From positions 21,452 to 85,451 of the forward strand of contig CAZSXW010000004.1 of NCBI GenBank assembly GCA_964610385.1: a stretch of 64,000 bases of DNA, written 5' to 3'. Below, in pieces: positions 23,491 through 64,000 of this stretch. This DNA comes from an uncultured Actinomycetota bacterium (GTDB lineage: Bacteria > Actinomycetota > Humimicrobiia > Humimicrobiales > Humimicrobiaceae). The notes under the pieces are model-generated. The model was not told where the DNA came from, did no database searches, and saw only the letters and a program-made list of their open reading frames with translations. Within the stretch, counting starts at the first letter, position 1. Every line of letters starts with the position of its first letter. The position numbers and the translations under genes were made by a program.

Positions 23491-23499
23491 TTTTATAGT

Positions 23500-23595
23500 T
23501 TTGACTTTTCCTACGCTAGCATTATCTAGGTCAGGTTTAGGGGTCGACGGTCTATTATTGAGACCGTCCTCTCAGCCAAATAAGCTCCCCCAAGT
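23500..23595 (-). promoter_or_regulatory. TPP (THI-box) riboswitch controlling thiM-thiE-thiC-thiL
   Basis: The minus strand reads GGGGAGC...CUGAGA...ACCC..AACCUGAcCUAGAUAAUGCUAGCGUAGGAAA. This matches the THI element consensus (GGGGUGC, CUGAGA, ACCUGAUCUGGAUAAUGCCAGCGUAGGGAA). Confidence 0.85.
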
Positions 23596-23659
23596 ATTTA
23601 TAAATATTTAATTTTCAAAGATTTTTCTTTATAATATAAAAGAAAAAATACATACAGAT

Positions 23660-47548: not shown

Positions 47549-47623
<75 letters not shown>

Positions 47624-49039: not shown

Positions 49040-50680
49040 ATGATCCAGTGGCCTAAAACAAATGATGCTCTTGGGACTGTAAACAGAGGAAATCCTGCAG
49101 AATCAGGATTATGTACACTCTGCCGTGCAGACTGCAAGGGAAAATGTGAAACATGGCTTTCAAGTCTTCGGGGAAGAGAACTTCTCTATCCTAGGGATTT
49201 CGGCCATGTAACAGCAGGAAGCGCAAATACATGCGCTATAGGAGTATGCTACAATTCGTTACGAATACAGGGATACCTTTATGGTGCAGATTATCTTCCA
49301 GACGGAGTCACAAACAGCACAGATGACTGTGTTTTTCCTAATGTTTCCATAGAAACACAATTTGGCAGAGAAGTTAAAACAAAATGCCGTATTCCTATTA
49401 TGACTGGAGCATTAGGCTCTACATTTATTGCTGCGAAGTACTGGGATTCTTTTGCCATAGGAGCTGCCTTATCTGGCTTTCCTATTGTAGTAGGTGAGAA
49501 TGTTGTTGGTGTAGACAAAGAAGCTGTTATAGAAAACGGAAAGATAAAGAACGCGCCTGAATTGGATAGAAGAGTAGAAACGTTTTTAAGATACTATGAC
49601 GGATACGGCGCCATTATAGTACAGATGAATGTTGAGGACGCAAGAAATGGTGTTGCACAGTACCTTATTGAAAAATACGGAGACAAAGTAATCATAGAAC
49701 TGAAATGGGGACAGGGAGCAAAAGTGATCGGCGGTGAAATCCAGGTTACCAATTTAGATTATGCAATTTTTCTAAAGAAACGGGGATACATAGTAGATCC
49801 CGATCCTGAAAAACCAGAAGTTCAGGAAGCATTCAAACACGGTGCAATAAAATCTATAGCAAGGCACAGCAGGCTCGGTTATACAAACCTTTCCAGCGTA
49901 AGTGCTGTTGAAGAAAATTTTATGAATGCCGTAAAAGACCTCAGGTCATCAGGATATAAACGAATATCATTAAAAACCGGTTCATATGGAATGGAAGCTC
50001 TGGCCATGTCAATTAAATATGCATCTGAAGCGAATCTTGATCTTCTAACTATTGACGGTTCCGGCGGAGGAACTGGTATGAGCCCGTGGAACATGATGGA
50101 AAGCTGGGGTGTTCCATCTATACTTCTGCATGCAAAAGCATATGAATATGCAAAACTGCTTGAATCCAAAGGCAAGACAGTCGTAAATATGGCCTTTGCA
50201 GGCGGTCTTGCAAAAGAAGACCAAATTTTTAAAGCTCTTGCTCTCGGTGCTCCATATGCAAAACTTATATGCATGGGGCGTTCTTTAATGATTCCGGGAT
50301 ACCTTGGTTCGAATATTGAAGGTGTAATTAATCCGTCCAAAAAGGAACAGCTCAATGGCAATTGGAATGATTTACCAAAGTCTGTAACCAATTACGGCTC
50401 TACTCCTGAAGAAATTTTTGCAGGATACTATGATATTCAGAAAAAGGTCGGTAAAGACGAGATGAAGAATATTCCGCTCGGTGCTATTGCTGTTTATACC
50501 TTATGCGACAAACTTGGTGCAGGATTACAACAGCTTATGGCGGGAAACAGAATCTTTAAAACTGAAGGTATTACGAGAAACGAGATTTTCTCAGCAAACA
50601 GGGAAACAGAGGCTGAAACAGGCATTCCATTTATTACTGATGTTCAGGACGAAATAGCAAAGGAAATCTTAAGTAAATAG
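49040..50680 (+). CDS. Archaeal-type glutamate synthase large-subunit domain protein (FMN-binding GltS domain with an N-terminal Cys cluster)
   Basis: 546 aa with an N-terminal CTLCRADCKGKC Cys cluster and a GltS FMN-domain signature (IDGSGGGTGMSP, comparable to DGGTGASP). Confidence 0.6.
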   Translation: MIQWPKTNDALGTVNRGNPAESGLCTLCRADCKGKCETWLSSLRGRELLYPRDFGHVTAGSANTCAIGVCYNSLRIQGYLYGADYLPDGVTNSTDDCVFPNVSIETQFGREVKTKCRIPIMTGALGSTFIAAKYWDSFAIGAALSGFPIVVGENVVGVDKEAVIENGKIKNAPELDRRVETFLRYYDGYGAIIVQMNVEDARNGVAQYLIEKYGDKVIIELKWGQGAKVIGGEIQVTNLDYAIFLKKRGYIVDPDPEKPEVQEAFKHGAIKSIARHSRLGYTNLSSVSAVEENFMNAVKDLRSSGYKRISLKTGSYGMEALAMSIKYASEANLDLLTIDGSGGGTGMSPWNMMESWGVPSILLHAKAYEYAKLLESKGKTVVNMAFAGGLAKEDQIFKALALGAPYAKLICMGRSLMIPGYLGSNIEGVINPSKKEQLNGNWNDLPKSVTNYGSTPEEIFAGYYDIQKKVGKDEMKNIPLGAIAVYTLCDKLGAGLQQLMAGNRIFKTEGITRNEIFSANRETEAETGIPFITDVQDEIAKEILSK

Positions 50681-50713
50681 TGTTTTTATCCGGGAGAGCT
50701 GCTGTTTCACCGG

Positions 50714-50953
50714 GTGATTTTGAATATTAATTCCCTAAAACATAATTACAGTATTATAGATGGGAAGCCCATGTATCCTATATACCTGATAAAGGAGCAC
50801 AGACGGTACACTATTATGGTCACTACAGTAATGCAACAAGGGGAAGATTTAAGAAAGAAGATAGCCAACCAGGTTATCACATTATGGCTGATAGGGATAC
50901 TAATATATAATTTTTTACTAAAAAAGATGAGCAGTATTCGAAGAGAAGGATAA
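50714..50953 (+). CDS. Possible small membrane protein (79 aa)
   Basis: An ORF with a C-terminal hydrophobic helix (ITLWLIGILIYNFLL). There is no homology or RBS support. Confidence 0.2.
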   Translation: MILNINSLKHNYSIIDGKPMYPIYLIKEHRRYTIMVTTVMQQGEDLRKKIANQVITLWLIGILIYNFLLKKMSSIRREG

Positions 50954-51004
50954 AAGGCCATATGCTAATCCATCTTTTAAATCAGTGGATTTATTAAAAT
51001 AAAA

Positions 51005-51034
51005 AGTTCTAAAAGCGTCCAATACGGGGAGCCA
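51005..51034 (+). repeat. Degenerate copy 1 of the tRNA-Asn 3' half (att-like): AGTTCTAAAAGCGTCCAATACGGGGAGCCA
   Basis: It is nearly identical to copy 2 and is similar to the tRNA T-arm and acceptor sequence GGTTCAAGTCCTACCCGGGGAGCCA (GTTC, GTCC and CGGGGAGCCA are conserved). Confidence 0.5.
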
Positions 51035-51507
51035 GTAAGTTTTACTTCAATAATTCTGGAATCTTAAATACTTCTTTTTATCGACAAATCTATCATTAAT
51101 ATATTTATGCAGCATGCTTGATATTAATGTCTGATAGGGATACCTTTAGTATTAACAAGAGATTTTATTTGCTCAAGATCATTATAATACATTTATAAAT
51201 CGGTTCGAAATTTCACAACCTGGTGCAGCCACCTATTTAGGACACCTAATCATTAAACAAATCCAGATATTTCCCTAACATAAAAATACAATTTTCCTAC
51301 TAAATCAATTCCCTATATACATATATGCATTGTTTAACACGCAACTCTTAAATTGTTTTAGAAAGGATAGTCCTGGTACCAGTTAGATATAAAAGAATCG
51401 GAGAAAGTTAACATGAAATTCATATTTATTTAACATGATTGTAACATTCATATACTATAATTAATTTTTCAGCTTAAAAATTTAAATATTACTTTGAAAG
51501 GACTCTA

Positions 51508-52746
51508 GTGGCTATTAGTAATGGGGATAATGCTTGGATGCTGGTTTCTGCAGCAATGGTAATGCTTATGACTCCTGGGTTGGCCTTTTTTTACGGAGGA
51601 ATGGTAAGAAGAAAAAATGCTATTTCCACAATAACGATGAGCTTTATGACACTGGGACTTATAAGTGTATTATGGGTTATTTTTGGATATAGTCTGGCAT
51701 TCGGAACGGACTTTGGAGGGGTTATTGGAGGTTTTGATTTTCTGATGCTCAGAAATGTCGGGCAGGAAGCCTCTGCTGTTTATGCAACTACGGTGCCCCA
51801 TCTTACTTTCATGGTCTTTCAGGGAATGTTTGCCATAATAACGGTAGCGCTTATTTCTGGTGCTGTAGTTGAGCGAATGAAATTTGCATCTATTTTAATA
51901 TTCTCTGTTCTATGGTTTTCGCTTGTTTATGTGCCTATAGCTCACTGGGTCTGGGGCGGAGGCTGGCTTGCAAACCTTGGAGTCCTTGATTTTGCAGGTG
52001 GTACTGCGGTCCATATAAATGCCGGTGTTTCAGCACTATCGCTTGCCATCTTATTAGGACCAAGGAAAGGATATGGTGGGTTGTCGGAAATGAGGCCCCA
52101 TAACGTTCCTTTTATTGTTATAGGAGCAGGCATTCTATGGTTTGGATGGTTTGGCTTCAATGCCGGCAGTGCATTGGCCTCTGGCGGACTTGCTTCAAGT
52201 GCTTTTGTGGCTACTAATGTTGCCGCAGCCGCAGCCGCGCTTACTTGGATGTTCCTGAGCTGGTTCTATCACAGACCGACGGCTTCCGGTATAGCCATAG
52301 GGGCTGTATCGGGACTCGTGGCAGTGACGCCTGCCGCCGGGTTTATCAGCCCTATATTCGGCTTACCTATCGGAATAGGCGCTTCAATAATCTGTTTTTA
52401 TATGATGAGACTTAGAAACAAGACAAGGATTGATGAATCGCTTGATGTATGGGCATGTCATGGAATGGCAGGCACATGGGGCTCAATTACGACTGGTGTA
52501 TTTGCGTCCATGGCAGTTAACCCAGCAGGAGCAGATGGGTTGATATATTCGGGAAGTTTCATTCTTTTAGCAAAACAATTCCTGGCAGTTATTGTAGTAT
52601 GGATCTTCTCTTTTGGAATGACATGGCTTATTGGTAAATTAATAGACGTGACGATAGGCCTCAGGGTCAGCTCTACCGAAGAAGCTATCGGACTTGATAT
52701 TTCACAGCATGGAGAAAAAGCATATACAAGAGAAGTGGATATTTAA
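51508..52746 (+). CDS. amt: Ammonium transporter (GTG start)
   Basis: 412 aa with 11 transmembrane helices and the Amt signature (DFAGGTAVHINAG). Confidence 0.9.
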   Translation: MAISNGDNAWMLVSAAMVMLMTPGLAFFYGGMVRRKNAISTITMSFMTLGLISVLWVIFGYSLAFGTDFGGVIGGFDFLMLRNVGQEASAVYATTVPHLTFMVFQGMFAIITVALISGAVVERMKFASILIFSVLWFSLVYVPIAHWVWGGGWLANLGVLDFAGGTAVHINAGVSALSLAILLGPRKGYGGLSEMRPHNVPFIVIGAGILWFGWFGFNAGSALASGGLASSAFVATNVAAAAAALTWMFLSWFYHRPTASGIAIGAVSGLVAVTPAAGFISPIFGLPIGIGASIICFYMMRLRNKTRIDESLDVWACHGMAGTWGSITTGVFASMAVNPAGADGLIYSGSFILLAKQFLAVIVVWIFSFGMTWLIGKLIDVTIGLRVSSTEEAIGLDISQHGEKAYTREVDI

Positions 52747-52747
52747 A

Positions 52748-53086
52748 ATGCAGAAGATAGAAGCCATAATAAAAGAAGATGCGTTTAACAGTATCAAGAA
52801 TGCCCTAGAAGAAGGTGGTTTTATTAGCATGACAGTCTGTAATGTTATAGGACGGGGTAAGCAAAAAGGCCTGGCATTAAAATGGAGGTCGTCCGAACAC
52901 AGAGTCGAATTTCTTCCAAAAGTTAAGATAGAACTTGTAGTCGACGACAAGGATCTTGATAGAGTCCTGGACATAATCTGCACAATAGCCAACACAGGAT
53001 CGGTTGGTGACGGGAAAATTTTTGTTATTCCAGTCGGTGAAGTTATAAGGATAAGGACTGGAGAACGAGGAGCGACTGCTATATAA
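52748..53086 (+). CDS. glnK: Nitrogen regulatory protein P-II
   Basis: 112 aa starting MQKIEAIIKE..., with a T-loop region (GRGKQKG). Its ATG lies 2 nt after the amt stop. Confidence 0.9.
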   Translation: MQKIEAIIKEDAFNSIKNALEEGGFISMTVCNVIGRGKQKGLALKWRSSEHRVEFLPKVKIELVVDDKDLDRVLDIICTIANTGSVGDGKIFVIPVGEVIRIRTGERGATAI

Positions 53087-53159
53087 GACTATCAGCGAGA
53101 GGACATCTATAGAAAGTGTAAGGAATTTCATGCAAAAAGGGTGTTAGAAATTAGGCCTG

Positions 53160-53197
53160 TTGTCTAAACCACCCGAAAAAGCGGTTTTCTTAGACAA
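53160..53197. repeat. Nested inverted repeat downstream of glnK (TTGTCTAA acc accc GAAAA agcgg TTTTC TTAGACAA); candidate terminator or protein-binding site
   Basis: Read directly from the sequence. Confidence 0.35.
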
Positions 53198-53395
53198 TAT
53201 TTATAAAAAACTTCTAACTAATATTATGTCTGGATCAGTTTTTGAGGAGAAGGGCAATTGTTAAATCTTTTAAAACTCAATTCAAGAATAAAAATATCTC
53301 CATTTAAGCTTAATGGTTTGGTTTTAACTTTGTCTCCAATGCCCTAAGATTTACATCATCTCATTATTTAATTTATGGTATATATTAGTGTCTAA

Positions 53396-53425
53396 AGTTC
53401 TAAAGGCGTCCAATACGGGGAGCCA
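53396..53425 (+). repeat. Degenerate copy 2 of the tRNA-Asn 3' half (att-like)
   Basis: AGTTCTAAAGGCGTCCAATACGGGGAGCCA matches copy 1 at 29 of 30 positions. Confidence 0.5.
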
Positions 53426-53593
53426 GAGATTTTTATTTGGCTTTCCCAAATTCCGGAGCAGCCAGCCCCCTAACAGTGGTAGGCCTTCATATCTTCCCAG
53501 TTGTAGAGTAGTCTTTGTAACAATTTATGTAAAAGATAGTCAAATATAATGGGAATTTAAAATATTTTTTATGTAAAGGATATAGTTGTTGAT

Positions 53594-54895
53594 ATGTCAC
53601 TAATAGATTTTTCAAGAAATAAGATTAAGAAACTATTTACTAAGGAAAGCAATATAGTACTTAAAAATAATGTTCCTGCTTACGAGAGTCTTGAATATAA
53701 GTTTGATGATATAGACGAATTCGGGCTTTATCTTCATGTTCCTTTTTGTAGGCAAATTTGCTCATATTGTCCTTATAATAAGGAGATTTATAAACCCGAA
53801 TTAGCAAAACTTTATACAAAGGCTGTAAAGAAGGAAATTGATTTCTATAGTACGCTTTTTAGTGGAAAGCCTGTAACATCATTCTATATTGGTGGCGGTA
53901 CTCCCACAACTATGCTTTACAGTGGGATTTCTGAGATTATAGAATATATATATAGAAATTTTAATATGCAGTGTGGTATACATATAGAAAGTCATCCTAA
54001 TGACTTAAATAATAATAATCTCAATACTATAAAATCTCTCGGCATAAAATACCTGAGTACAGGAGTAGAAGCTCTTGATGATAAATACCTAAATTTTCTT
54101 AATAGACCATATAATACTAAAGAAGTAAAGGAAGTAATTGAAAGAGTAGTCAGTAAAGGATTTAAATGTTTTAATGTAGACTTCATTTTTGCTTTACCTG
54201 ACCAGTCATATAGCGAGATAGAAAAGGCAGGCCATGAGTTAGTTAAAATGGGTGTGAATCAGGTAGCAGCTTATCCATTCTTTAAATTTCCATATACTAA
54301 AATGGGCGGAAATTCTGATGAAAGCAATTACAGTATATCAACAATATTTAGAAGACGTAAAATGTTAAGCATCCTCGAAAATATTTTCTATAATTCTGAT
54401 TTTGAGAGAACTTCTGTCTGGGCATTCACAAAAAAGGGAATATCAAAATATTGTTCTGTAACTGTGCCTCTTTATGTTGGCATTGGTGCTAGTGCTGGAA
54501 CATACCTAAAGGATATTTTTTATTTAAATACTTTCAATGTTTCTGAGTATACTACTGTTATGAATAGCGGAAAGCCACCAATTGCCTTATCGCTTGATCT
54601 TTCAAGAAACATGCAGATGGCATGGTGGTTTTACTGGAGAGTATATGAAACTAGATTTAAGAGAAGCGATTTTAAAAAAAGATTCGATGTGCAGTTTAAT
54701 AAAATATATGGAAAATATATTAAATTATTTTCTTTATTTGGTTTTATAAAAAACGATAATAAAGACCAAATAATTCTTTCAGATAGAGGTTCATACTGGT
54801 TGCATGCAGTTGAAGACCTGTTTTCATTAAACTATATAGGTAAGTTATGGGGAACTTCCAAACAAGAACCCTGGCCTAAAATGGTAGAATTGTAA
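53594..54895 (+). CDS. Radical SAM protein, HemN-like (oxygen-independent coproporphyrinogen-III oxidase family)
   Basis: A CxxxCxxC motif (CRQICSYC) and an HemN-type GGGTPT motif. GC is about 29%, lower than its neighbours. Confidence 0.7.
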   Translation: MSLIDFSRNKIKKLFTKESNIVLKNNVPAYESLEYKFDDIDEFGLYLHVPFCRQICSYCPYNKEIYKPELAKLYTKAVKKEIDFYSTLFSGKPVTSFYIGGGTPTTMLYSGISEIIEYIYRNFNMQCGIHIESHPNDLNNNNLNTIKSLGIKYLSTGVEALDDKYLNFLNRPYNTKEVKEVIERVVSKGFKCFNVDFIFALPDQSYSEIEKAGHELVKMGVNQVAAYPFFKFPYTKMGGNSDESNYSISTIFRRRKMLSILENIFYNSDFERTSVWAFTKKGISKYCSVTVPLYVGIGASAGTYLKDIFYLNTFNVSEYTTVMNSGKPPIALSLDLSRNMQMAWWFYWRVYETRFKRSDFKKRFDVQFNKIYGKYIKLFSLFGFIKNDNKDQIILSDRGSYWLHAVEDLFSLNYIGKLWGTSKQEPWPKMVEL

Positions 54896-54960
54896 TAGAA
54901 TTAAAAAGATGAAATTTGCTCCCATTTATCTTCAAAATTAGGAAGTTCATTAAAGTAAAA

Positions 54961-54990
54961 AGTTCGAAATGTATCTACTAAGGGGAGCCA
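54961..54990 (+). repeat. Degenerate copy 3 of the tRNA-Asn 3' half (att-like)
   Basis: AGTTCGAAATGTATCTACTAAGGGGAGCCA matches copy 1 at 23 of 30 positions. The left flank TTAAAGTAAAA also matches copy 1 (TTAAAATAAAA). Confidence 0.4.
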
Positions 54991-55045
54991 AACGATGTCT
55001 CTTCACCAACAAACGAGGTAACCCACTCTCTAATAATATTGTATT

Positions 55046-55128
55046 TTTACTTGACGAAGTAAAAAATAAGTATTATTATATCAATATACGATATAACGAG
55101 CTACGATATAACGTAAAACGATATAATA
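55046..55128 (+). promoter_or_regulatory. Promoter (TTGACG, 17-bp spacer, TATTAT) followed by three direct repeats of ACGATATAA(C/T)(G/A) at 15-bp period (55088, 55103, 55118); candidate operator of the PadR gene
   Basis: Read directly from the sequence. The repeats lie at the predicted transcription start of the PadR gene. Confidence 0.45.
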
Positions 55129-55137
55129 ATAGAAGTA

Positions 55138-55491
55138 TTGAAGCAGGAAATGATGGATATAAAAAAGATAAAAAAGTACTCTCCTCTTACGGAGACTACA
55201 TTCTATATCTTGATATCTCTTATTGAGCCTTTGCACGGGTATGGGATAATGCAGAAGGTAGAAAGACTGAGTAACGGCAGGGTTAAACTCGGGCCTGGGA
55301 CTCTTTATGGAGTACTTGGAAATCTTTTAGAGGCAAGAATGATAGAGTTAAAAGATGATAGCAGGATCAAAAGCAGGAGAAAGGTATATTGTATAAAGCA
55401 GCTTGGCATCGATATGATAAGGTTTGAACTGGACCGTCTTGAAGAGATGATTAAAAATGGCAAGTTCCTTCTTAATGAGAAAGGACAATGA
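55138..55491 (+). CDS. PadR-family transcriptional regulator
   Basis: 117 aa with a PadR wHTH (LHGYGIMQKV...GPGTLYGVLGNL). Confidence 0.85.
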   Translation: MKQEMMDIKKIKKYSPLTETTFYILISLIEPLHGYGIMQKVERLSNGRVKLGPGTLYGVLGNLLEARMIELKDDSRIKSRRKVYCIKQLGIDMIRFELDRLEEMIKNGKFLLNEKGQ

Positions 55492-56071
55492 TATGGATAA
55501 AAAAGAAACAAAAAAATTTATGAAGATATTCTTTGCCTGGAAGGAAGAAAGAGAAGCAAAGTGGCTATATGAGATGTCGAAAAAGGGTTGGCACCTTAAG
55601 GAAGTAGGATTATTTTGTTATACATTCCAAAAGGGTATACCACATGATTATACCTATAGATTCGATTTCAAAGTATTGAAAAAAGATGATATGGATGAAT
55701 ATACTGCCATATTTAAAGATGCAGGATGGGTATATATAGGAAGCATAGGATCCTGGCATTATTTCAGAACTGAAGGTGGAGTAGAGTTAGAGCCCGAATT
55801 ATATAATGACAACAGATCAAGAATAGAAAAGTATAAAAGGCTTCTTATTGTACTTGGTATAATATTCCTCCCAGTGATGATGTGGGGTCTGCCTAATCTG
55901 TATATGAGGATGATTGATATGGCCTCAGACAGCATACTCAATAATCCTGTTGTATTTAATATCTATTTGCCTTTTGTGGTCATCCTTACAATTGTGGAGG
56001 TCTTTGTACTCTACGGAATTATCAGGATTATTATAATAATAAACAAATTGAAAAAAGAGATCAGGGAATAG
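55457..56071 (+). CDS. PadR-associated membrane protein (DUF2812-like)
   Basis: 204 aa with two C-terminal transmembrane helices. The overlapping, co-directional arrangement with PadR is typical. Confidence 0.5.
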   Translation: MASSFLMRKDNDMDKKETKKFMKIFFAWKEEREAKWLYEMSKKGWHLKEVGLFCYTFQKGIPHDYTYRFDFKVLKKDDMDEYTAIFKDAGWVYIGSIGSWHYFRTEGGVELEPELYNDNRSRIEKYKRLLIVLGIIFLPVMMWGLPNLYMRMIDMASDSILNNPVVFNIYLPFVVILTIVEVFVLYGIIRIIIIINKLKKEIRE

Positions 56072-56238
56072 TAGAAATCTACTACATTCAAGCTTTTAAA
56101 TATAAATTAAAAATAGTTATAAATAATTAATAAATTTGAAAACCTGGATATAGTTGATAATAATTTATACGTTTATTTAAACCATATAATTAAAATATTA
56201 TATACTGTATTTTATTTTAATCCTGAGGAAGAGGTTTA

Positions 56239-56673
56239 ATGAAAAAAATAAAAGTATTATTTTTATGCGTACATAATTCTGCAAGAAGTCAAATGGCTGA
56301 AGCATATCTTAACAAATTTGGTGAGGGACAATTTAAAGCTGAAAGTGCAGGTTTTGAACCTGGGAAACTTAATCCTATTGCGGTTGATGTAATGAAAGAA
56401 GAGGGCATAGACATATCAGATAACAGGATTGATAGCGTATATGAATTTTTTAAACAGCGAAGGTTTTATGGTTATGTGATTACAGTCTGTGATACTGCCA
56501 ATAATCAAAAATGTCCGATCTTTCCCGGTGTCCCAAAACGGATTCACTGGAATATAGAAGACCTTTCCTCTTTTAAAGGTAGTTATGAAAAAAAGCTTAA
56601 AAAAACAAGGATAGTTAGGGATGAAATTAAGAAAAGGGTGAAGGGATTCATAGAAGATGTAAAAAGTAAATAA
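56239..56673 (+). CDS. arsC: ArsC-family arsenate reductase / LMW phosphatase-like (thioredoxin-coupled type)
   Basis: LCVHNSARSQMAEA compares to the ArsC P-loop CTGNSCRSQMAEG. The Cys82 and Cys89 equivalents are present (VITVCDTANNQKCP). Confidence 0.6.
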   Translation: MKKIKVLFLCVHNSARSQMAEAYLNKFGEGQFKAESAGFEPGKLNPIAVDVMKEEGIDISDNRIDSVYEFFKQRRFYGYVITVCDTANNQKCPIFPGVPKRIHWNIEDLSSFKGSYEKKLKKTRIVRDEIKKRVKGFIEDVKSK

Positions 56674-56884
56674 ATAGTCTATCTTCCTATACATCAAATT
56701 TTGGATTTTCAATTTATAAAAGAAAGATTCCATTTGTCAAGTATTTCAATCTCCAATTTGGAATAATAGTAGATTAGAAGAAGCAATAACTTACCAGCTA
56801 TAATTTGTTTTCACTCTTGATATATAAACGTAATTGTTATATGATATATTAATTTTATATATATATAAAGGGGAGCGATGCAGT

Positions 56885-57805
56885 ATGAAAATAGCAGATG
56901 ATGTTACAAAGTTAATAGGCGGTACTCCATTAGTCAGGCTTAATAAATTAACTTCGGGAATAGAAAATACTATTATAGCTAAGTTGGAGTGTTTTAATCC
57001 TCTGTCCAGTGTCAAAGATAGAATTGGTATAAGTATGATCGAAGCTGCTGAAAAACAGGGGCTGATTAAGAAAGATACGATTATTCTGGAACCTACCAGT
57101 GGTAACACTGGAATTGCTCTGGCTTTTGTCTGCGCCACCAAAGGGTATAAGCTCATCCTTACCATGCCTGATACAATGAGCCTTGAACGAAGAGTTTTAC
57201 TAAAAGCCTTTGGAGCTGAATTAATCCTTACCCCGGGCAAAGAAGGTATGAGAGGTGCCGTTAGGAAAGCTGAAGGATTAGCAAAGGTCAACTCTCGGTA
57301 TTTTATACCTCAGCAATTTAAAAACCCGGCTAATCCAGAAATTCATCGTAAGACCACAGCTGGAGAGATTTGGGGAGACACAGATGGCAAAGTAGACATT
57401 TTAGTTGCTGGAGTAGGTACAGGAGGCACTATTACAGGAGTAGCTGAACTAATTAAAAAAAGAAAGCCTGTCTTCAAAGCAATCGCGGTTGAACCTGAAG
57501 ATTCACCGGTTCTTTCTGGTGGGGAGCCTGGATTGCACAGGATTCAAGGAATTGGTGCAGGGTTTGTGCCCGAGGTTTTAAGAACAGATTTAGTGGATGA
57601 GGTTATTCGGGTAACCTATAATGATGCTGCCGAAACTGCAAGAAGGTTGGCTAGGGAAGAAGGATTATTGGTCGGTATTTCTTCCGGTGCAGCAGCTTGG
57701 GCGGCAATAGAGGTCGGCAAAAGAAAAGAGAATAAAAACAAACTCATTGTTGTAGTTTTTCCGGATACGGGAGAAAGATATCTTTCAACGGATTTGTTTA
57801 AATAA
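56885..57805 (+). CDS. cysK: Cysteine synthase A (O-acetylserine sulfhydrylase)
   Basis: 306 aa with a PLP-lysine region (SVKDR) and GNTG. The RBS AAAGGGGAG lies upstream. Confidence 0.9.
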
Positions 57806-57838
57806 AGCTTAAAATTTCTTACCTTTAGAAGGTGGGTG

Positions 57839-57922
57839 ATGGCGATGATATGGATTATGCAATTGCCCTTAAGAGGGCAGAGCTTATTAAAGAAGAATGA
57901 CTTTTTAGAAAATTTAAAATGA
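57839..57922 (+). CDS. Candidate 27-aa upstream ORF (MAMIWIMQLPLRGQSLLKKNDFLENLK) preceding the DUF39 gene
   Basis: An SD-like AAGGTGG upstream and three Met in the first seven codons. An internal hairpin TGCCCTtaagAGGGCA is present. This call is speculative. Confidence 0.2.
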   Translation: MAMIWIMQLPLRGQSLLKKNDFLENLK

Positions 57923-57949
57923 GACGGTTATTAATTAGGAGGTGCTTAA

Positions 57950-59158
57950 ATGGCAAAGACGATAACTGAAATCAATGAAAAAATCAAAAAGGGAAATGTT
58001 GTAGTTGTTACTGCAGAGGAGATTATTGACATTGTAGACAAGGAAGGTGTAAAAAAGGCTGCTGAAAAAGTAGACGTAGTTACTACTGCCACTTTCGGGC
58101 CAATGTGTTCTTCTGGTGCATATTTCAACATCGGTCATGCTAAACCCAAAATAAAACTCGGTGGAGGCAGATCATATTTAAACGAAGTACCCGTGTATAC
58201 GGGCTTTGCTGCTGTGGACGTTTACATTGGGGCCACTGCTATACCTGATGACGACCCGCGCAATAAGATTTTCCCCGGGGAGTTTAAATATGGAGGTGGC
58301 CATGTGATCGAGGATTTGGTAGCGGGTAAGGATTTAAAGTTTGAAGCCAGTGCCTATGGTACAGATTGTTATCCGCGGAAGAAGTTAGAGACTTGGTTAA
58401 ACATCAAGGACCTTAATGAGGCAGTGCTTTTTAATCCAAGAAACGCTTACCAAAACTACAATGTAGCTGTTAACCTTTCTGGCAAGATCATCTACACCTA
58501 CATGGGAGTACTTAAGGACAATTTAAAGAATGCTAACTACTGTAGTGCGGGACAACTTTCCCCACTTTTAAATGACCCATATTACAAAACTATTGGAATT
58601 GGAACGAAGATCTTCCTAGGGGGAGGTAAAGGTCATGTTGTCTGGCAGGGAACTCAACACAATCCTACAGTAAAGAGAAAAGATAACGGTGTTCCTCAAG
58701 TACCAGCGGGTGCTTTAGCCGTTTTAGGAGACCTTAAACAGATGAAACCTGAATGGCTGATAGGTACTACCATGGTAGGATATGGTGTAACTTTAACTGT
58801 TGGTATAGGTATACCTATACCAATTCTTAATGAAGAAATATGTCGATATACTGCAGTGAAGGATGAGGAAATATGGGCTCAGGTAGTCGATTACAGTGAG
58901 GCTTATCCGCAGGGGAAAAAGGAAAATCTTGGTGAGGTAAACTATTCGCAACTTAAAAGCGGTAAGATTACAATCCGGGGCAAAGAGGTTCCAACAGGAA
59001 ATCTTTCCAGTTATCCAAAAGCAGTGGAGATTGCTAATATTCTGAAAGAATGGATTAAAGATGGTAGTTTTCTACTGGGTGAACCTGTGGCATACCTGCC
59101 AGGCGCGGATAGTGGATATACTTTTAAACCTCTAAAGGAAAGGCCGATTAAAGAGTGA
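57950..59158 (+). CDS. DUF39/COG1900 homocysteine-biosynthesis protein (sulfide-dependent, methanogen MA1821-type)
   Basis: 402 aa with the characteristic COG1900 sequence (VVTTATFGPMCSSGAYFN...). It is followed by an NIL-ferredoxin partner gene. Confidence 0.7.
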   Translation: MAKTITEINEKIKKGNVVVVTAEEIIDIVDKEGVKKAAEKVDVVTTATFGPMCSSGAYFNIGHAKPKIKLGGGRSYLNEVPVYTGFAAVDVYIGATAIPDDDPRNKIFPGEFKYGGGHVIEDLVAGKDLKFEASAYGTDCYPRKKLETWLNIKDLNEAVLFNPRNAYQNYNVAVNLSGKIIYTYMGVLKDNLKNANYCSAGQLSPLLNDPYYKTIGIGTKIFLGGGKGHVVWQGTQHNPTVKRKDNGVPQVPAGALAVLGDLKQMKPEWLIGTTMVGYGVTLTVGIGIPIPILNEEICRYTAVKDEEIWAQVVDYSEAYPQGKKENLGEVNYSQLKSGKITIRGKEVPTGNLSSYPKAVEIANILKEWIKDGSFLLGEPVAYLPGADSGYTFKPLKERPIKE

Positions 59159-59248
59159 TTTAACTGAAAAAATGGGGGCGCAGATGGACTGGCTTTGTAT
59201 CAATATGTGTCTGCGCCTCCCGTGCTAAATTTTTCGGGGGTGGTTTTT

Positions 59249-59656
59249 ATGATATCCAAAAGAATAGTCCTTCATTTTCCGCATAAACTCGTTGATCGGC
59301 CCGTGGTATACAAACTGGTAAAAGATTATAACTTAGAGTTCAATATACTGAAGGCCTATGTCACACAGAGGGAAGAAGGGTTATTGGTTTTAGAATTAAC
59401 TGGTGAAAATTCCAACTACAAACAAGGTATTAAATATCTTTCAGAGGCTGGCGTAAAGATACAGCCTTTAGAACAGGACATCATTCGTAATGAAAGAAGG
59501 TGTACTGATTGCGGGGTGTGCGTACCAATTTGTCCGACCGGCGCCTTGGTTGTGGAACCTATAACCAGGAAAGTTCACTTTTATGATAATAAGTGCATTG
59601 CTTGCGAGCTTTGTGTAAAAGCATGTCCGGTGAAAGCAATGGAGATATATTATTAA
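59249..59656 (+). CDS. NIL-domain plus 2x[4Fe-4S] ferredoxin (MA1822-type partner of DUF39)
   Basis: An N-terminal NIL-like domain and two CxxCxxCxxxCP motifs (CTDCGVCVPICP, CIACELCVKACP). The probable start is MISKRIV, preceded by the RBS GGGGGTGG. Confidence 0.7.
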   Translation: MISKRIVLHFPHKLVDRPVVYKLVKDYNLEFNILKAYVTQREEGLLVLELTGENSNYKQGIKYLSEAGVKIQPLEQDIIRNERRCTDCGVCVPICPTGALVVEPITRKVHFYDNKCIACELCVKACPVKAMEIYY

Positions 59657-59730
59657 TTGCTAACTCATTTGACAATGGTATTTATATATGATATAAAAAC
59701 CATTGTAGTATAGAAAACGAGGAGGTTTTT

Positions 59731-60042
59731 ATGGAATACGGTTATAAGGAGCCGGTCTATACCATTGGTATTATTGCTAAATCTTTGAAGGTTTGCCCTG
59801 CTACCCTCAGAATTTGGGAGAGGAAAGGTTTAATCAAGCCGGCTCGTATAGGAAAGAATAGGTTCTATTCTAAATGTGATATAGACAGGCTTGAGTACAT
59901 CAAAGATTTAATACAGAAAAAAAGAATTAATATCGAAGGTATTAAAGGTATGTTAAGTACCAGCCGGTGTTGGGAAGTGAAGAAATGTAAACCGAAAGAT
60001 AGGAATACTTGCAAGGTTTATCAAAAGTACGGCAACACTTAA
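59731..60042 (+). CDS. Small MerR-family regulator with a C-terminal Cys cluster (CWEVKKCKPKDRNTC)
   Basis: A MerR HTH (YTIGIIAKSLKVCPATLRIWERKGLIKP) and three C-terminal Cys residues. It is a possible metal, redox or Fe-S sensor. Confidence 0.6.
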   Translation: MEYGYKEPVYTIGIIAKSLKVCPATLRIWERKGLIKPARIGKNRFYSKCDIDRLEYIKDLIQKKRINIEGIKGMLSTSRCWEVKKCKPKDRNTCKVYQKYGNT

Positions 60043-60057
60043 GTTTTTTGGAGAGAT

Positions 60058-60732
60058 ATGTGGTTTTATTCTGAGAAAGTGAAAGAGCTTTTTAAGAATC
60101 CGCTTAATGTGGGTGAGATTAAAAACCCAGATGCAGTGGGGGAAGTAGGAAGTATCATTTGCGGAGATGCTCTTCGACTTACCTTAAAATTAGATAAAAA
60201 AACAGATAAAATCTTGGACGCAAAATTTCAGACCTTTGGATGCGCGAGTGCCATTGCCTCCTCGTCAGCCATGACTGAGATGATTAAAGGCATGAATATT
60301 AAAGAGGCGTCTAAGGTCACCAATAAAGACATTGTTAAGTATTTAGGCGGTTTGCCCAGTGAAAAGATGCATTGCTCGGTTATGGGTATGGAAGCCCTGG
60401 AGGCGGCAATTGCCAATTACAGAGATACTGCTGTTAAAAAAGAGACTGTTGGTAAAGAGAGGATTGTCTGTAAATGTTTTAGTGTAACCGATAAAAAGAT
60501 AATCCGCGCCATAAAAGAAAATAATCTTAAAACTGTGGAAGAAGTAACTAATTACACCAAGGCAGGCGGAGGTTGTGGTAATTGCAAGCCTAAAATAGAG
60601 AAATTACTAAAAGAAGTTTGGAAGAAAGAAACAATAAAAGGGAACCATCCTAAAGAAACTCCTAAGAAAAAACTTTCAAAGTTAAGGGAATTTATTGAGA
60701 AAGATATTGTGGTAGAAGAGGTTAAAGAATGA
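60058..60732 (+). CDS. nifU: NifU-like Fe-S scaffold (IscU domain plus BFD-like [2Fe-2S] domain)
   Basis: IscU motifs (CGD, GCAS, HCS) and a central CxC...CGNC BFD-type domain. There is no C-terminal Nfu domain. Confidence 0.8.
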
Positions 60733-61898
60733 TAGAGAAAATAGTGTATGTAGATAACAATGCTACTACAATGGTTGCCCCGGAGGTTTTTGAGGCTATG
60801 AAGCCCTTTTTGACAGGTGAATATGGGAATCCTTCAAGCATGTATGCCTTTGGCGGTAAAATTTTTAAAAATATTGAGAATTCAAGAGAAGCTGTCGCAG
60901 AGCTCTTGGGAGCGCAAGACCCTCAAGAGATTATATTTACCAGTTGTGGCACAGAAAGTGATAACACTGCTATAATCAGCACTTTGCACTCTTATCCTGA
61001 GAAAAAACATATAATAACAACTAAGGTAGAACATTCAGCAGTGCTTAATCTGTGCAAATATTTAGAAACAATAGGATATAGAGTAACTTATCTCGGTGTG
61101 GATAACCAAGGCATGATTGATTTAGATGAACTTAAAAGCTCAATCGTCCCGGACACAGCTATTATCTCTGTAATGTATGCTAATAATGAAACAGGAGTGA
61201 TTTTTCCTATAGAAGAGATAGCAGAGATCGCCAGAACCAGAGGCGTGGTATTTCATACGGACGCTGTGCAGGCAGTAGGTAAGATTCCTTTTAAATTGAC
61301 AAAACTACCTGTAGATTTTCTGTCTTTATCCGGACATAAGTTACATGCACCAAAAGGAGTAGGTGCTCTTTATGTTCGTAAAGGAACAAGATTTACACCA
61401 TTCTTAATAGGTGGTCATCAGGAACATGGCCGGCGGGGTGGTACAGAAAATGTCCCTTCCATTGTAGGATTAGGAGTTGCCTGCCGGTTGGCCAAGAAAA
61501 CTATTGAGGAAGAAAGGACGGGGGTTAAGGCCTGGCGCGATAAATTGGAAAATACGATTTTAGAAAAAATACCAAATACAAAGTTAAATGGACATCCAGA
61601 GTTAAGACTCCCTAACACGACTAATATAAGCTTTGAATTTATTGAAGGTGAGGCAATATTGTTGAAGCTTGATGAAAAAGCCATAGCTGCTTCCTCCGGT
61701 TCTGCTTGTACCTCAGATTCCTTAGCACCTTCCCATGTGCTAAAAGCCATGGGGATTCCTTTCACTTTTATGCAGGGATCCATTCGCTTTAGCCTCAGCC
61801 GCTACAATACTGAAGAAGACATAGATTACATTATTAAAAACCTTCCACCTATTATTAGCCGGTTGAGAGAGATATCCCCGTACGGCAAACAGAGGTGA
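60729..61898 (+). CDS. nifS: Cysteine desulfurase NifS/IscS
   Basis: 389 aa with a PLP-Lys (SGHKL) and an active-site Cys loop (SSGSACTS). Confidence 0.9.
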
Positions 61899-61932
61899 AA
61901 AAGGGATTATATCTATTTTTCAATAATAGCAG

Positions 61933-62622
61933 TCATCCCAGTCTGTACCCGGCCTTCTCCCATGCCTTGCGCATTACCGGGTTGCGGCGCAGATAGGTAT
62001 CCACTTTGTTCTTTTCCACTCTGTTAAGCGGGCAGGAGAAGTTAATACACCGGGGACAGATGAGTGTCCAAAGTACGATAAAAAAAGCTACTATGCATGC
62101 AATAGTTGCTCCGGTTATTCCGATCATCCCAAGTAATGTAAGATTCCCATACATCGAATAGCGGGATGCGATTTGAAATATGCCGTAAGCCTGGACCGCG
62201 ATAGGGAAGGCGCCGAAGATTACAAAACCCACGATCAGGGATATCTTCTCAAACCGGTTCATGGGTCCAGGGTGATAGCGCCATAACTTAATAGTACCGT
62301 GATTGGCAAGACAGCGAAGCATTCTACCACTGCGGGCATAGTAGGGGCAGTGGGAGCAAAGAACCCTTATTTCGAAGAAAATGAAGAAAAATACCCAGAA
62401 CCCGAAGTAGACCGTCAGTGGCCACCATAATCCCGCAATTATTCCCACCATTACCATCCCGAAGATCGCCACCAGCGCGAAAGGGATAGCAGACAGCAGG
62501 AATCCTGTGAGCGCCCAAGCATCCCACTTACAGTTCAGTCTTTCCCTATTCTCACACGTCGCGCAGTCGGCTTCCTCATCCCAGGTGCAGATTCGGAAAG
62601 GATTTGGTGATTTCATTAACAT
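61933..62622 (-). CDS. Hypothetical Cys-rich polytopic membrane protein (GC-rich island)
   Basis: Multiple Cys pairs (CATCEN, CSHCPYY, CPRCINFSCP) with four to five transmembrane helices. GC is about 48% against a local background of 33-40%. Confidence 0.5.
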   Translation of the reverse strand: MLMKSPNPFRICTWDEEADCATCENRERLNCKWDAWALTGFLLSAIPFALVAIFGMVMVGIIAGLWWPLTVYFGFWVFFFIFFEIRVLCSHCPYYARSGRMLRCLANHGTIKLWRYHPGPMNRFEKISLIVGFVIFGAFPIAVQAYGIFQIASRYSMYGNLTLLGMIGITGATIACIVAFFIVLWTLICPRCINFSCPLNRVEKNKVDTYLRRNPVMRKAWEKAGYRLG

Positions 62623-62643
62623 TCTCCTTTTTCTGAAAGTTGA

Positions 62644-63471
62644 TTAATCAAAAGTGCTTTCCTTTATTTTCCTATAGAATTCTTTATTAAGCCTTAAACG
62701 GTCTTTCATATAATCACTGAAAATTATTGCCTTTTTTGGACAGTTATGTACACATTTTAGACAGAACTCGCAATTGTCAGGATTAATGTATGGATGATCC
62801 TCTCCTTCACTCCAGCAGCCCTGGATACAATTTTTTACACATATATTACAATTATTGCATCTTTCTTCAAGCACCCTGAGGTTTGAACTGTACTGCCTGT
62901 AGTCTACCCTGTCAAGCTGCCTCCTAAACAACCTGGTGAGAGGTGAATACCACCGAAGCGGCGGTATATTTGTTATATTCTCCCTGTGCAGTAAAAAACT
63001 TTCTACTTTACCTACTGCCCTATTGATTTTTTCATTTACCTTCTTCTCGTACCTGAAGAAAAATTTCATCAATGGAAATAACAGGACTCCATCACTGGCA
63101 GGGCCCCTTATCTGCATATAACCTATTACCAGGCTGTTCTTCTTTTGAAGCATATCTGAAAGTATCCTTATGCTGTTTCCGTTATAGAGGCCATAGGTAG
63201 TAAATAGAAAGAAGGCAGTATCTTTCATTACAGGCATATTTCTGACAAATTCTATGGCAGAAAATGACGGGCTGAAGCCGTAAGTAGGAAAACCCAGGAT
63301 TACGAGATCGTAAGATGATAACATATTATAATCAAAATCAGGTTTTATCTTTACTATATCAACTTCATTACCACCGCCCAGTCTTTCTGAAAATACTCTG
63401 CTTATCAATTCGGTACTGCCGGATCCTGAATGATAGATTATTATAATCTTATTATGTCTTTTATCTTTCAT
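62644..63471 (-). CDS. Flavodoxin-like domain fused to a 2x[4Fe-4S] ferredoxin domain
   Basis: A flavodoxin N-terminus (KIIIIYHSGSGSTE) and C-terminal CNNCNICVKNC / CEFCLKCVHNCP motifs. The ORF extends to 63543, but the flavodoxin-typical start is the Met at 63471. Confidence 0.6.
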   Translation of the reverse strand: MKDKRHNKIIIIYHSGSGSTELISRVFSERLGGGNEVDIVKIKPDFDYNMLSSYDLVILGFPTYGFSPSFSAIEFVRNMPVMKDTAFFLFTTYGLYNGNSIRILSDMLQKKNSLVIGYMQIRGPASDGVLLFPLMKFFFRYEKKVNEKINRAVGKVESFLLHRENITNIPPLRWYSPLTRLFRRQLDRVDYRQYSSNLRVLEERCNNCNICVKNCIQGCWSEGEDHPYINPDNCEFCLKCVHNCPKKAIIFSDYMKDRLRLNKEFYRKIKESTFD

Positions 63472-63770
63472 TGTAGACCGACAGTCTCCCTTATTTTTTC
63501 CATAAGGCTGATTATCCCAGACCTTATCCAAACATATTATCATAAATATTCATGTTGGAGGATAGTTGTTTTCTTAACTTACTGCTTATAATAATTCTTG
63601 ATGGAAAATAACCTGTTATTAATAAAATTGATTTCTAAGAAGGGTATTTTATTGACATCTTATTACATTGACTACAGTTATAAAAAAATATATTATAAAA
63701 AATGCTCGAACCACTGGACCGGGAGTAACCCGGGGAAATAAGACAATCTTCAAGGAAGGAGATAAAATTA

Positions 63771-64000
63771 TGCCAAAGGAAGACACAGATGTTTCAAAGA
63801 GTGGAGGTACAGTAACTATAACTGCCGTAAACAAGCTTCAAATCGACAGACCCAGTCAGACTATCGAGATTTCAGCCAAAAAATTGGAGGCACTTGATGA
63901 AAAAGACCTGACAAAAATACATGTCAGGGATGAAACCGGCAAGGAAGTGCTCTGCCAGGCAGTGGATACCGACGGAGACTACTTCCCGAACCAGTTGATA
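63771..64000 (+). CDS. Hypothetical protein, 3' end truncated by the window edge
   Basis: The RBS AAGGAAGGAG lies 8 nt upstream of the ATG. The frame is open to the end of the window. A TTGACT, 17-bp spacer, TATTAT promoter sits at about 63660-63690. Confidence 0.45.

Follow-up and report, generated by a model that had tools for sequence, protein, structure and literature searches.

A native gene cluster for sulfur and Fe-S metabolism in an uncultured anaerobe, with a candidate cysteine-tailed mini-MerR regulator

The window analysed here is a 64-kb stretch of contig CAZSXW010000004.1 (64,000 nucleotides; positions count from its first letter). It carries a locus of sulfur assimilation and iron–sulfur (Fe-S) cluster assembly, at the heart of which cysK, a DUF39 gene, a NIL-ferredoxin gene, merR, nifU and nifS follow one another. 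An earlier note, made from the sequence alone, had described nine genes at this locus, and an open reading frame (ORF) check together with Pfam and NCBIfam profile scores bore out all nine with their domains, coordinates and strands. The locus comprises known families that appear to work as expected in a phylum new to them. The useful lead is the product of merR, a small regulator whose cysteine tail is invariant and which has a conserved candidate operator.

Enzymes for cysteine, homocysteine and Fe-S clusters

The cysK gene (56885-57805, + strand) encodes an O-acetylserine sulfhydrylase, which scores 459.2 bits against TIGR01139 and lies above the equivalog cut-off of 350.95. For comparison we used 59 related loci from a scan of GTDB species genomes, which represent Omnitrophota, Elusimicrobia, Aerophobetes and some bins with other labels; homologues of cysK stand near a MerR homologue in about 20 of them. 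At the downstream end of the cluster, nifU (60058-60732, +) codes for a protein with IscU-like and BFD-like [2Fe-2S] domains (PF01592, PF04324; TIGR02000 296 bits, cut-off 273) and nifS (60729-61898, +) for a cysteine desulfurase (TIGR03402 621 bits, cut-off 531). Of the scaffold and catalytic cysteines, Cys35, Cys62 and Cys106 as well as Cys138, Cys140, Cys173 and Cys176 are present in NifU, and Cys327 is present in NifS. Both proteins thus pass their equivalog cut-offs, and the genes overlap by 4 nt (a gap of -4 nt) and appear translationally coupled, as in the NIF-type minimal machinery of anaerobes. Unlike that machinery, the NifU of the window has no C-terminal Nfu domain, its match covering profile positions 1-204 of 290, and the window contains no nitrogenase genes. 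For the latter reason NifS and NifU would form a housekeeping system.

Between cysK and merR lie the genes for the DUF39 protein (57950-59158, +) and, 90 nt further downstream, for the NIL-ferredoxin (59249-59656, +). The 402-residue DUF39 protein (HcyBio, COG1900a) matches PF01837 across the entire profile (positions 1-349 of 349, 511 bits, E 1.4e-153), which establishes it as a full-length member of COG1900/DUF39. PF01837 is also the sole domain matched in this protein, and a C-terminal CBS pair is absent. Its partner matches the NIL domain (PF09383, 57.9 bits) and Fer4 families, and contains eight cysteines that form two CX2CX2CX3C motifs; independent gene calls agree on a reading of 135 residues. 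As the earlier note had proposed, a DUF39 protein paired with a NIL-2x[4Fe-4S] ferredoxin is the architecture of the sulfide-dependent homocysteine route (PMC5764234, PMC12068725).

This route was defined genetically in Methanosarcina, where the two proteins are MA1821 and MA1822 (PMC5764234, PMC12068725). In Desulfovibrio vulgaris, methionine prototrophy requires DUF39, NIL/ferredoxin and COG2122, and for Dehalococcoides the DUF39 route has been inferred (PMC5764234). The subunits of the enzyme, L-ASST (short for L-aspartate-semialdehyde sulfurtransferase), an essential Cys54 and the binding of methionine by NIL have also been described (PMC12068725). Judged by homology to these genetically characterised systems, the pair in the window is the known L-ASST route, which would convert sulfide to homocysteine. 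DUF39 is probably the catalytic subunit, and the NIL-ferredoxin would donate electrons and probably sense methionine. With the L-ASST of Methanosarcina and Desulfovibrio the window pair shares a full-length DUF39 protein, an anaerobic host, and a partner that combines a NIL domain with two [4Fe-4S] motifs. An N-terminal cysteine of the window protein, Cys53 in the sequence GPMCSSG, may by its position correspond to the essential catalytic Cys54 of MA1821. The window protein also contains Cys140, and the second cysteine of MA1821 is Cys131. Among the differences, MA1821 carries the C-terminal CBS pair that is missing here, the DUF39 and NIL-ferredoxin genes are unlinked in Desulfovibrio but adjoin in the window, and COG2122 is not near the window pair, which is itself known from sequence. 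Within the 64-kb window we found neither canonical methionine genes nor a COG2122/ApbE-like gene. We also sought a solved structure for DUF39 and found none.

Homologues of the DUF39 protein number at least 8000, and the best 120 are all at least 81% identical, approximately 402 residues long and of the same single-domain form. Several close homologues (81-85% identical), from metagenome-assembled genomes (MAGs) of Omnitrophica, Nitrospirota and Deltaproteobacteria, are named "homocysteine biosynthesis protein" in NCBI records. Few of the best 120 carry a source name, and those that do are bacterial. The term "methanogen-type", which the earlier note had attached to the pair, is overstated, since the route is already established in anaerobic bacteria and the named close homologues are bacterial.

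Could the DUF39 protein catalyse the conversion of a different aldehyde to a thiol, for example in a coenzyme-M-like pathway as does MMP16, instead of homocysteine synthesis? The functions of COG1900 proteins may overlap, and L-ASST may serve as a back-up for MMP16 (PMC12068725); moreover, the function of the Omnitrophota enzyme is assigned from sequence. Against this alternative, the protein scores 115.8 bits with the MMP16 (COG1900d) model TIGR03287, whose cut-off is 363.95, and the inserted ferredoxin domain that is a trait of MMP16 is absent, as no Fer4 match occurs within the 402 residues. Furthermore, in related genomes DUF39 takes the slot beside cysK that metY/metX occupy in others, a non-orthologous displacement that points to homocysteine. 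More generally, the relatives appear to swap three alternative homocysteine modules at one chromosomal position, namely DUF39, metY/metX and a TusA/ThiS/ThiF-type set. This exchange provides independent genomic support for the assignment of DUF39 to homocysteine synthesis, and we regard a different aldehyde substrate as highly improbable. The DUF39 pair is real but already known, and ordinary. The enzymes contribute little that is new, except that they place the known sulfide-dependent DUF39 route in Omnitrophota, a phylum of which no members are in routine culture.

The mini-MerR regulator and its candidate operator

The merR gene (59731-60042, +) encodes a protein of only 103 residues with a MerR_1 domain (PF13411, 64.4 bits, cut-off 21.6). 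It ends in the cysteine-rich tail C80-W81-x4-C86-x7-C94, all four named residues of which are invariant in 75 aligned sequences; C22 and C49 are nearly invariant. Homologues number 353, of which the best 120 (metagenomic) are 68-93% identical and almost all 103 residues long. The CW-C-C motif is retained in 57 of the 59 related loci. A wider family emerged from a profile search of 1.84 billion representatives clustered at 50% identity. The pattern CW-x3-5-C-x5-9-C occurs in 88 of the best 150 of them; the family is broad, and many of its longer members contain a second CW module. An AlphaFold model of the monomer has a mean pLDDT of 83.8 (approximately 72 in the tail) and short helices.

By model and profile search, the closest structures are those of GlnR and TnrA (PDB 4r4e, 7tea, 4r22), with 36% identity over residues 6-77 and TM-scores of approximately 0.8-0.89 when normalised to the target and 0.65-0.69 when normalised to the query. 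Like these Bacillus regulators, the window protein is small, is devoid of the long MerR coiled coil and has a C-terminal tail in the position of a regulatory one, and its palindromic core measures about 17 bp. The likeness extends no further than the DNA-binding domain: in GlnR and TnrA the tail is a helix that binds glutamine synthetase and the targets are nitrogen genes, whereas the tail in the window is rich in cysteine with an invariant tryptophan and the genes at hand serve sulfur and Fe-S metabolism. With the TnrA model NF053740 the protein scores 21.5 bits (cut-off 140).

The best NCBIfam match of the protein is HspR (NF047375, 61.9 bits), and homologues carry the JGI label [quoted passage not shown]. 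It could be argued, then, that merR encodes an HspR-type heat-shock repressor which stands beside nifUS by accident. Yet the score falls well under the cut-off of 105, no chaperone genes adjoin any of the 59 homologues, at which sulfur, Fe-S and redox genes recur instead, and the window has a separate hrcA-dnaJ heat-shock unit. HspR is not known to carry the invariant CW-C-C tail. We consider this explanation very unlikely.

The models of the SoxR, CueR, ZntR, MerR and CadR subfamilies give scores of only 18-33 bits, with cut-offs of 117-168 (for SoxR, TIGR01950, 18 against 117). SoxR, a [2Fe-2S] redox sensor, is comparable as another MerR-family protein, one whose sensing relies on C-terminal cysteines. 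It differs in its motif (CIGCGCLSxxC as opposed to CWx4Cx7C), in its long dimerisation helix, for which the window protein has no counterpart, and in activating a promoter with a 19-20-nt spacer, compared with 17 nt here. A further candidate for the identity of the tail was the uncharacterised two-CW domain NF045718. It was rejected because the tail of the window protein gives no match at E <= 10; relatives of the regulator reach 11.8-14.3 bits, below the cut-off of 35. In longer relatives of 140-160 residues (P0383, P0387, P0409, P0412, P0440 and others), the first CW-C-C is followed by a second module of the approximate form PCW...C...C..C.VY. These proteins hold two CW...C...C modules, and the window protein resembles a one-module version of them. 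By its profile scores, the regulator falls outside every characterised MerR subfamily tested as well as the two-CW model, and is to be classed as an uncharacterised variant. In the literature searched, which is incomplete in coverage, nothing relevant turned up on a comparable MerR-type sensor of Fe-S clusters or persulfide, or on "two-CW".

In the 74-nt gap that separates merR from the NIL-ferredoxin gene, inspection of the sequence reveals a strong, near-consensus sigma-70-type promoter for merR-nifU-nifS (59669-59697, +). Its -35 element TTGACA (59669-59674) is separated by a spacer of 17 nt from an extended -10 element TGaTATAAA (59689-59697), an architecture common to the regions upstream of MerR homologues in at least 24 related loci. 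Superimposed on it is a near-perfect 35-bp palindrome (59672-59706) with 16-nt arms that are 94% complementary, ACAATGGTATTTATAT-ATG-ATATAAAAACCATTGT, which spans the promoter from the -35 element to approximately +1 and is the candidate MerR operator. The palindrome has a conserved 17-bp core, TTTATATATGATATAAA, and the consensus upstream of MerR homologues reads cTTGACAAT-N4-TTTAyATATGATATAAAA. With one mismatch allowed, 29 of 58 regions upstream of MerR contain the core 9-mer ATATGATAT, regions from GC-rich Elusimicrobia among them, as compared with 1.7% of random 110-nt windows. The operator is thus conserved upstream of MerR homologues across Omnitrophota, Aerophobetes and Elusimicrobia.

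From 23 distinct sites upstream of MerR homologues we built a position weight matrix (PWM). In the 64-kb window its only strong match (30.4 bits) is the merR promoter, followed by 14.1 bits within thiM and 11.8 bits upstream of cysK; the region upstream of DUF39 scores 0.1 bits. Over 782 kb of related loci, scores of at least 15 bits were confined to MerR promoters (30 loci) and to second sites directly downstream of MerR. Sites of the latter kind occur in three loci (L019, L020, L027), where they precede thi4 or nifS. The weak cysK site (56834-56856) lies 29-51 nt upstream of the gene and is near chance level. The thiM site, also near chance level, is located in the 5' end of the gene (23307-23329), downstream of a thiamine pyrophosphate (TPP) riboswitch (23491-23601). 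These two weak sites are notable since cysK and thiazole genes are neighbours of MerR in other genomes.

Because the sole strong operator stands in front of merR, downstream of the DUF39 pair, the regulator most likely controls merR-nifU-nifS here, and not cysK or DUF39. The cluster as a whole would then comprise separate transcription units instead of a single operon. A 211-nt gap separates the ArsC-like gene upstream from cysK, and a further 144 nt lie between cysK and DUF39; nifU starts 15 nt past the merR stop codon. Between the DUF39 and NIL-ferredoxin genes there is a GC-rich hairpin (59174-59220, +) with 11-nt arms that are 91% complementary, followed by AAAUUUUU; the 93-nt intergenic region folds with -29.5 kcal/mol (z = -2.9). 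The hairpin may stabilise the transcript between the two cistrons or terminate it in part, and could tune the ratio of the two subunits. The leaders of cysK and DUF39 fold no better than shuffled sequences (z = -1.2 and +1.1), and Rfam searches of 55400-64000 (gathering thresholds, E <= 5) returned no riboswitch, save for a chance 6S-like match.

Cotranscription of cysK, DUF39, NIL-ferredoxin, merR, nifU and nifS as one sulfur operon, or their joint control by MerR, would be compatible with the common strand of the six genes, with the weak motif-like site upstream of cysK, and with four related loci (L019, L020, L025, L063) in which MerR stands directly upstream of cysK-DUF39. In the window, however, merR is downstream of the DUF39 pair, the strong promoter and operator occur before merR only, and the 144- and 211-nt gaps together with the stable hairpin past DUF39 favour separate units. 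A single operon is accordingly an unlikely arrangement. We also looked for a shared MerR operator before cysK, DUF39, the NIL-ferredoxin gene and the ArsC-like gene, and rejected it, as only the weak cysK site was found. A 12-mer match between the cysK and merR regions, TTATATGATATA, failed as a common register. The earlier note had grouped cysK, nifUS and the Cys-tailed regulator and had seen the DUF39 pair as wired under this sensor. The grouping recurs in related genomes and holds, whereas position and motif lend no support to the wiring of the DUF39 pair in the window.

Related loci and the signal of the cysteine tail

Across the related loci, MerR homologues keep company with several kinds of genes. 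The regulator stands directly upstream of nifU-nifS in five loci (L006, L012, L023, L029, L055), upstream of (thi4-)cysK-DUF39 in the four named above, and upstream of thi4-metY-cysK-metX in L021 and L042; metY and metX lie beside cysK in L021, L027 and L042. In L007, L009, L011 and L017 it follows a set of TusA, ThrC-like, ThiS, ThiF and NIL genes. Other neighbours are a ThiI-like gene, MnmA/NIL/NadA, MsrAB and an FNT channel, and redox functions are represented by an RnfC-D-G-E-A-type complex (7 loci) and Rex (4 loci). The functional association of this regulator with sulfur, Fe-S and redox genes across the phylum is real.

Stand-alone NIL proteins of 72-79 residues are encoded immediately upstream of the MerR homologue or two genes off in L007, L009, L011, L017, L035, L034, L040 and L042, where their genes adjoin ThiF/ThiS/ThrC-like/TusA or MnmA/NadA genes. 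NIL could therefore serve sulfur metabolism in these phyla as a regulatory module of general use.

We consider it probable that, taken as a whole, the locus is the native sulfur-utilisation cluster of an uncultured anaerobe, organised in separate units of which merR-nifU-nifS is autoregulated. CysK would make cysteine from sulfide and O-acetylserine. The DUF39/NIL-ferredoxin pair would form homocysteine directly from sulfide, with electrons passing through the two [4Fe-4S] clusters and with NIL as the probable site of feedback by methionine (PMC12068725). From the cysteine, NifS would take the sulfur as a persulfide for the assembly of Fe-S clusters on NifU, and the genes of both would share one operon with merR. 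A dimer of the regulator would bind the palindrome and repress its own operon by occlusion, and the invariant Cys-Trp-x4-Cys-x7-Cys tail would release or strengthen the binding to DNA in response to Fe-S, sulfur or thiol status. Occlusion is also the mode by which GlnR represses. It is the most likely mode here because the palindrome spans the promoter and the spacer has the optimal length of 17 nt, and not the 19-20 nt that classical MerR activators need (PMC11672702). What the analysis shows is the identity of the genes, their membership of families, the single conserved palindromic promoter and the recurring association of the regulator with sulfur, Fe-S and redox genes in other genomes. 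Repression, ligand and enzyme activities are inferred, the last by homology to genetically characterised systems.

The organisation of merR-nifU-nifS is reminiscent of iscR-iscSUA. IscR is an Rrf2-family [2Fe-2S] autorepressor that heads an Fe-S assembly operon and ligates its cluster with three cysteines and one further residue. In both cases the regulator gene comes first in an operon for a cysteine desulfurase and a scaffold, the operator overlaps the regulator's own promoter, and three conserved cysteines occupy a short C-terminal segment. The folds are different (Rrf2 as opposed to MerR/GlnR-type), as are the motifs (Cx5Cx5C plus His as opposed to CWx4Cx7C), and the binding of a cluster by the window protein is putative.

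By this analogy, with three cysteines and one further ligand as in IscR and with a gene that heads an Fe-S assembly operon, an Fe-S cluster may be the signal of the tail, and we regard it as the leading candidate at somewhat less than even chances. Thiol or sulfane-sulfur chemistry, suggested by neighbours among which enzymes acting directly on sulfide or persulfide are enriched, is a less probable signal. A thiophilic metal or structural Zn receives a slightly smaller share of our confidence.

The last of these readings deserves separate discussion. The three cysteines could bind a thiophilic metal, be it Cu(I), Zn(II) or Cd(II), in the manner of CueR or ZntR, or they could make up a purely structural zinc knuckle. 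The regulator would then respond to metal stress, which creates a secondary need for Fe-S repair and thiol synthesis. In three Elusimicrobia loci (L047, L050, L064) the homologue retains the CW motif and stands upstream of genes for a CusB-like adaptor, which carries a heavy-metal-binding domain (PF19335), and for a CusA-like resistance-nodulation-division (RND) pump. Classical MerR proteins bind their metals in cysteine-rich loops (PMC11672702). On the other hand, the window protein has neither the long dimerisation helix nor the metal-binding loop of CueR, ZntR and MerR, and its scores with all metal-MerR equivalogs are far under the cut-offs. The spacer of 17 nt also departs from the 19-20 nt of metal-activated MerR promoters (PMC11672702), and the neighbours in Omnitrophota are sulfur, Fe-S and redox genes, not efflux genes. 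A metal site is thus rather unlikely. In the same three Elusimicrobia loci, the DNA upstream of the regulator keeps an ATATGAT-type motif despite a high genomic GC content.

Several observations weigh against the autoregulated sulfur and Fe-S cluster proposed above. The boundaries of the transcription units were drawn from gaps and motifs. A plain consensus promoter (-35 and extended -10) accounts for part of the conserved upstream sequence, so some of the conservation need not mean an operator, and the weak cysK site (11.8 bits) may indicate a wider regulon. Neighbours beyond sulfur and Fe-S metabolism, namely rnf, rex, msrAB, FNT and the CusB/CusA-like genes, may point to redox or metal as the signal instead. 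COG2122, which the homocysteine pathway needs in Desulfovibrio, is absent from the 64-kb window. Finally, an Rrf2-family regulator (IscR/CymR-like, PF02082, 122 bits) is encoded beside cysK and near MerR in L013 (10831-11280) and L023 (5329-5751). It follows that MerR does not simply replace IscR or CymR, and that two different candidate Cys-based regulators coexist at some loci.

A broader proposal, which we put forward as tentative and on balance doubtful, is that the one-CW regulator is the first example of a mini-MerR sensor class that is uncharacterised yet widespread among anaerobes, Omnitrophota, Elusimicrobia and Aerophobetes included. Its tail would bind an Fe-S cluster or become persulfidated, and through one palindromic operator it would control Fe-S assembly, CysK, DUF39/MetY, Thi4, Rnf and Rex. 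If true, this protein would be the functional counterpart, on a GlnR/TnrA-like scaffold, of IscR, CymR or CstR. A tail that senses Fe-S or sulfur status would explain how Fe-S and sulfur homeostasis is controlled in these anaerobes, and would provide a first function for the unstudied CW-type cysteine modules. As the regulator is small and the operator is defined, a direct in vitro test is feasible.

Chromosomal setting and neighbouring genes

The sulfur cluster is native and chromosomal, with no sign of an island. This follows from a GC content equal to that of the window, from flanks made of core genes, and from closest homologues within the same phylum (Omnitrophota MAGs). The earlier note had set a locus of distinct GC content against a backbone of 30-33% and had placed it beyond a tRNA-Asn island array. 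Neither description survives the measurements: GC is 0.395 in the locus (0.399 from cysK to nifS) and 0.389 in the whole window, and ARAGORN and Rfam find a single tRNA-Asn in the 64 kb (47549-47623), 8.6 kb upstream of the locus. The low-GC outlier is not the sulfur cluster itself but an adjoining segment (53087-56884, 0.315), in which a HemN-like radical-SAM gene is accompanied by PadR, DUF2812 and the ArsC-like gene. Core chromosome makes up the remainder of the window. It contains genes for an ABC transporter and sugar kinases, plsY, guaB, guaA, pcrA/uvrD and a gene of the DAHP-synthase family, a thiamine operon preceded by the TPP riboswitch, hrcA-dnaJ, phoH, ybeY, era and recO, as well as glyQS, a pyruvate phosphate dikinase (PPDK) gene, dnaG-rpoD, nrpR, a gltS-like gene, amt and glnB.

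The idea of a horizontally acquired, "methanogen-type" island inserted distal to tRNA-Asn draws on the fact that DUF39/NIL-ferredoxin was first characterised in Methanosarcina, and on the tRNA-Asn upstream with the low-GC stretch between it and the locus. We consider such an origin extremely improbable. The GC of the locus equals the window mean, there is no tRNA array, and the gene annotation of the window contains no integrase. A search across the window for repeats of the 3' end of tRNA-Asn (16-25 nt) found none, and no att-like repeat. The genes that intervene between the tRNA and the locus include nrpR, the gltS-like gene, amt and glnB, and for each gene the closest homologues come from one and the same phylum and are syntenic. 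The best-named relatives of MerR, NifU, NifS and DUF39 belong to Candidatus Omnitrophota MAGs, which makes an uncultured bacterium of that phylum the most likely host. The exact DUF39 protein also occurs on metagenome contigs L001-L005, where synteny is identical, and on an NCBI contig. GC, GC at third codon positions (GC3), the tRNA-repeat search and the flanking gene content all speak against horizontal transfer.

Three further genes at the locus are not conserved neighbours of the sulfur module. The ArsC-like low-molecular-weight phosphatase (LMWPc; 56239-56673, +) matches PF01451 with 53 bits and the pI258-type ArsC model TIGR02691 with 115 bits (cut-off 174). It contains Cys10, Cys84 and Cys92, to be compared with the triad Cys10/82/89 of pI258, and homologues occur in 2 of the 59 related loci. 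Convergent with nifS lies a gene for a cysteine-rich membrane protein of 229 residues (61933-62622, -), with 11 cysteines and approximately four hydrophobic segments, for which neither Pfam nor NCBIfam holds a matching family. Its GC3 is 0.58, compared with approximately 0.25-0.41 for the adjoining sulfur-cluster genes. Its 439 homologues have about 228 residues and, beyond the closest few, are 46-57% identical; those that are named belong to bacterial and archaeal taxa, anaerobes among them (Methanocella, Methanogaster, Odinarchaeota, Dehalococcoidia, Zixibacteria, Latescibacterota). The two contexts of this family that we examined, in Methanocella and Dehalococcoidia, are not conserved and bear no relation to sulfur metabolism. 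The next gene (62644-63543, -) encodes an EFR1-family flavodoxin-ferredoxin fusion (NF038196, 105.6 bits, cut-off 75), which gene callers start at 63471 (275 residues). No homologues of the EFR1 ferredoxin or of the membrane protein were found in the 59 related loci, and the Methanocella neighbour of the membrane protein is unrelated to EFR1; both were rejected as parts of the system.

Elsewhere in the window, two adjoining ORFs (33027-34316 and 34384-35454, +) encode proteins of 429 and 356 residues that have no significant Pfam match, the first giving only sub-threshold ones. Just past tRNA-Asn, a gene for a full-length NrpR-type nitrogen repressor (47901-48917, +; PF01995, 267 bits, plus HTH_12) is followed at 49040-53086 by genes for a glutamate-synthase-like protein, an ammonium transporter and a P-II protein. 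This bacterial nitrogen unit is noteworthy, since methanogens are the group for which NrpR is best known.

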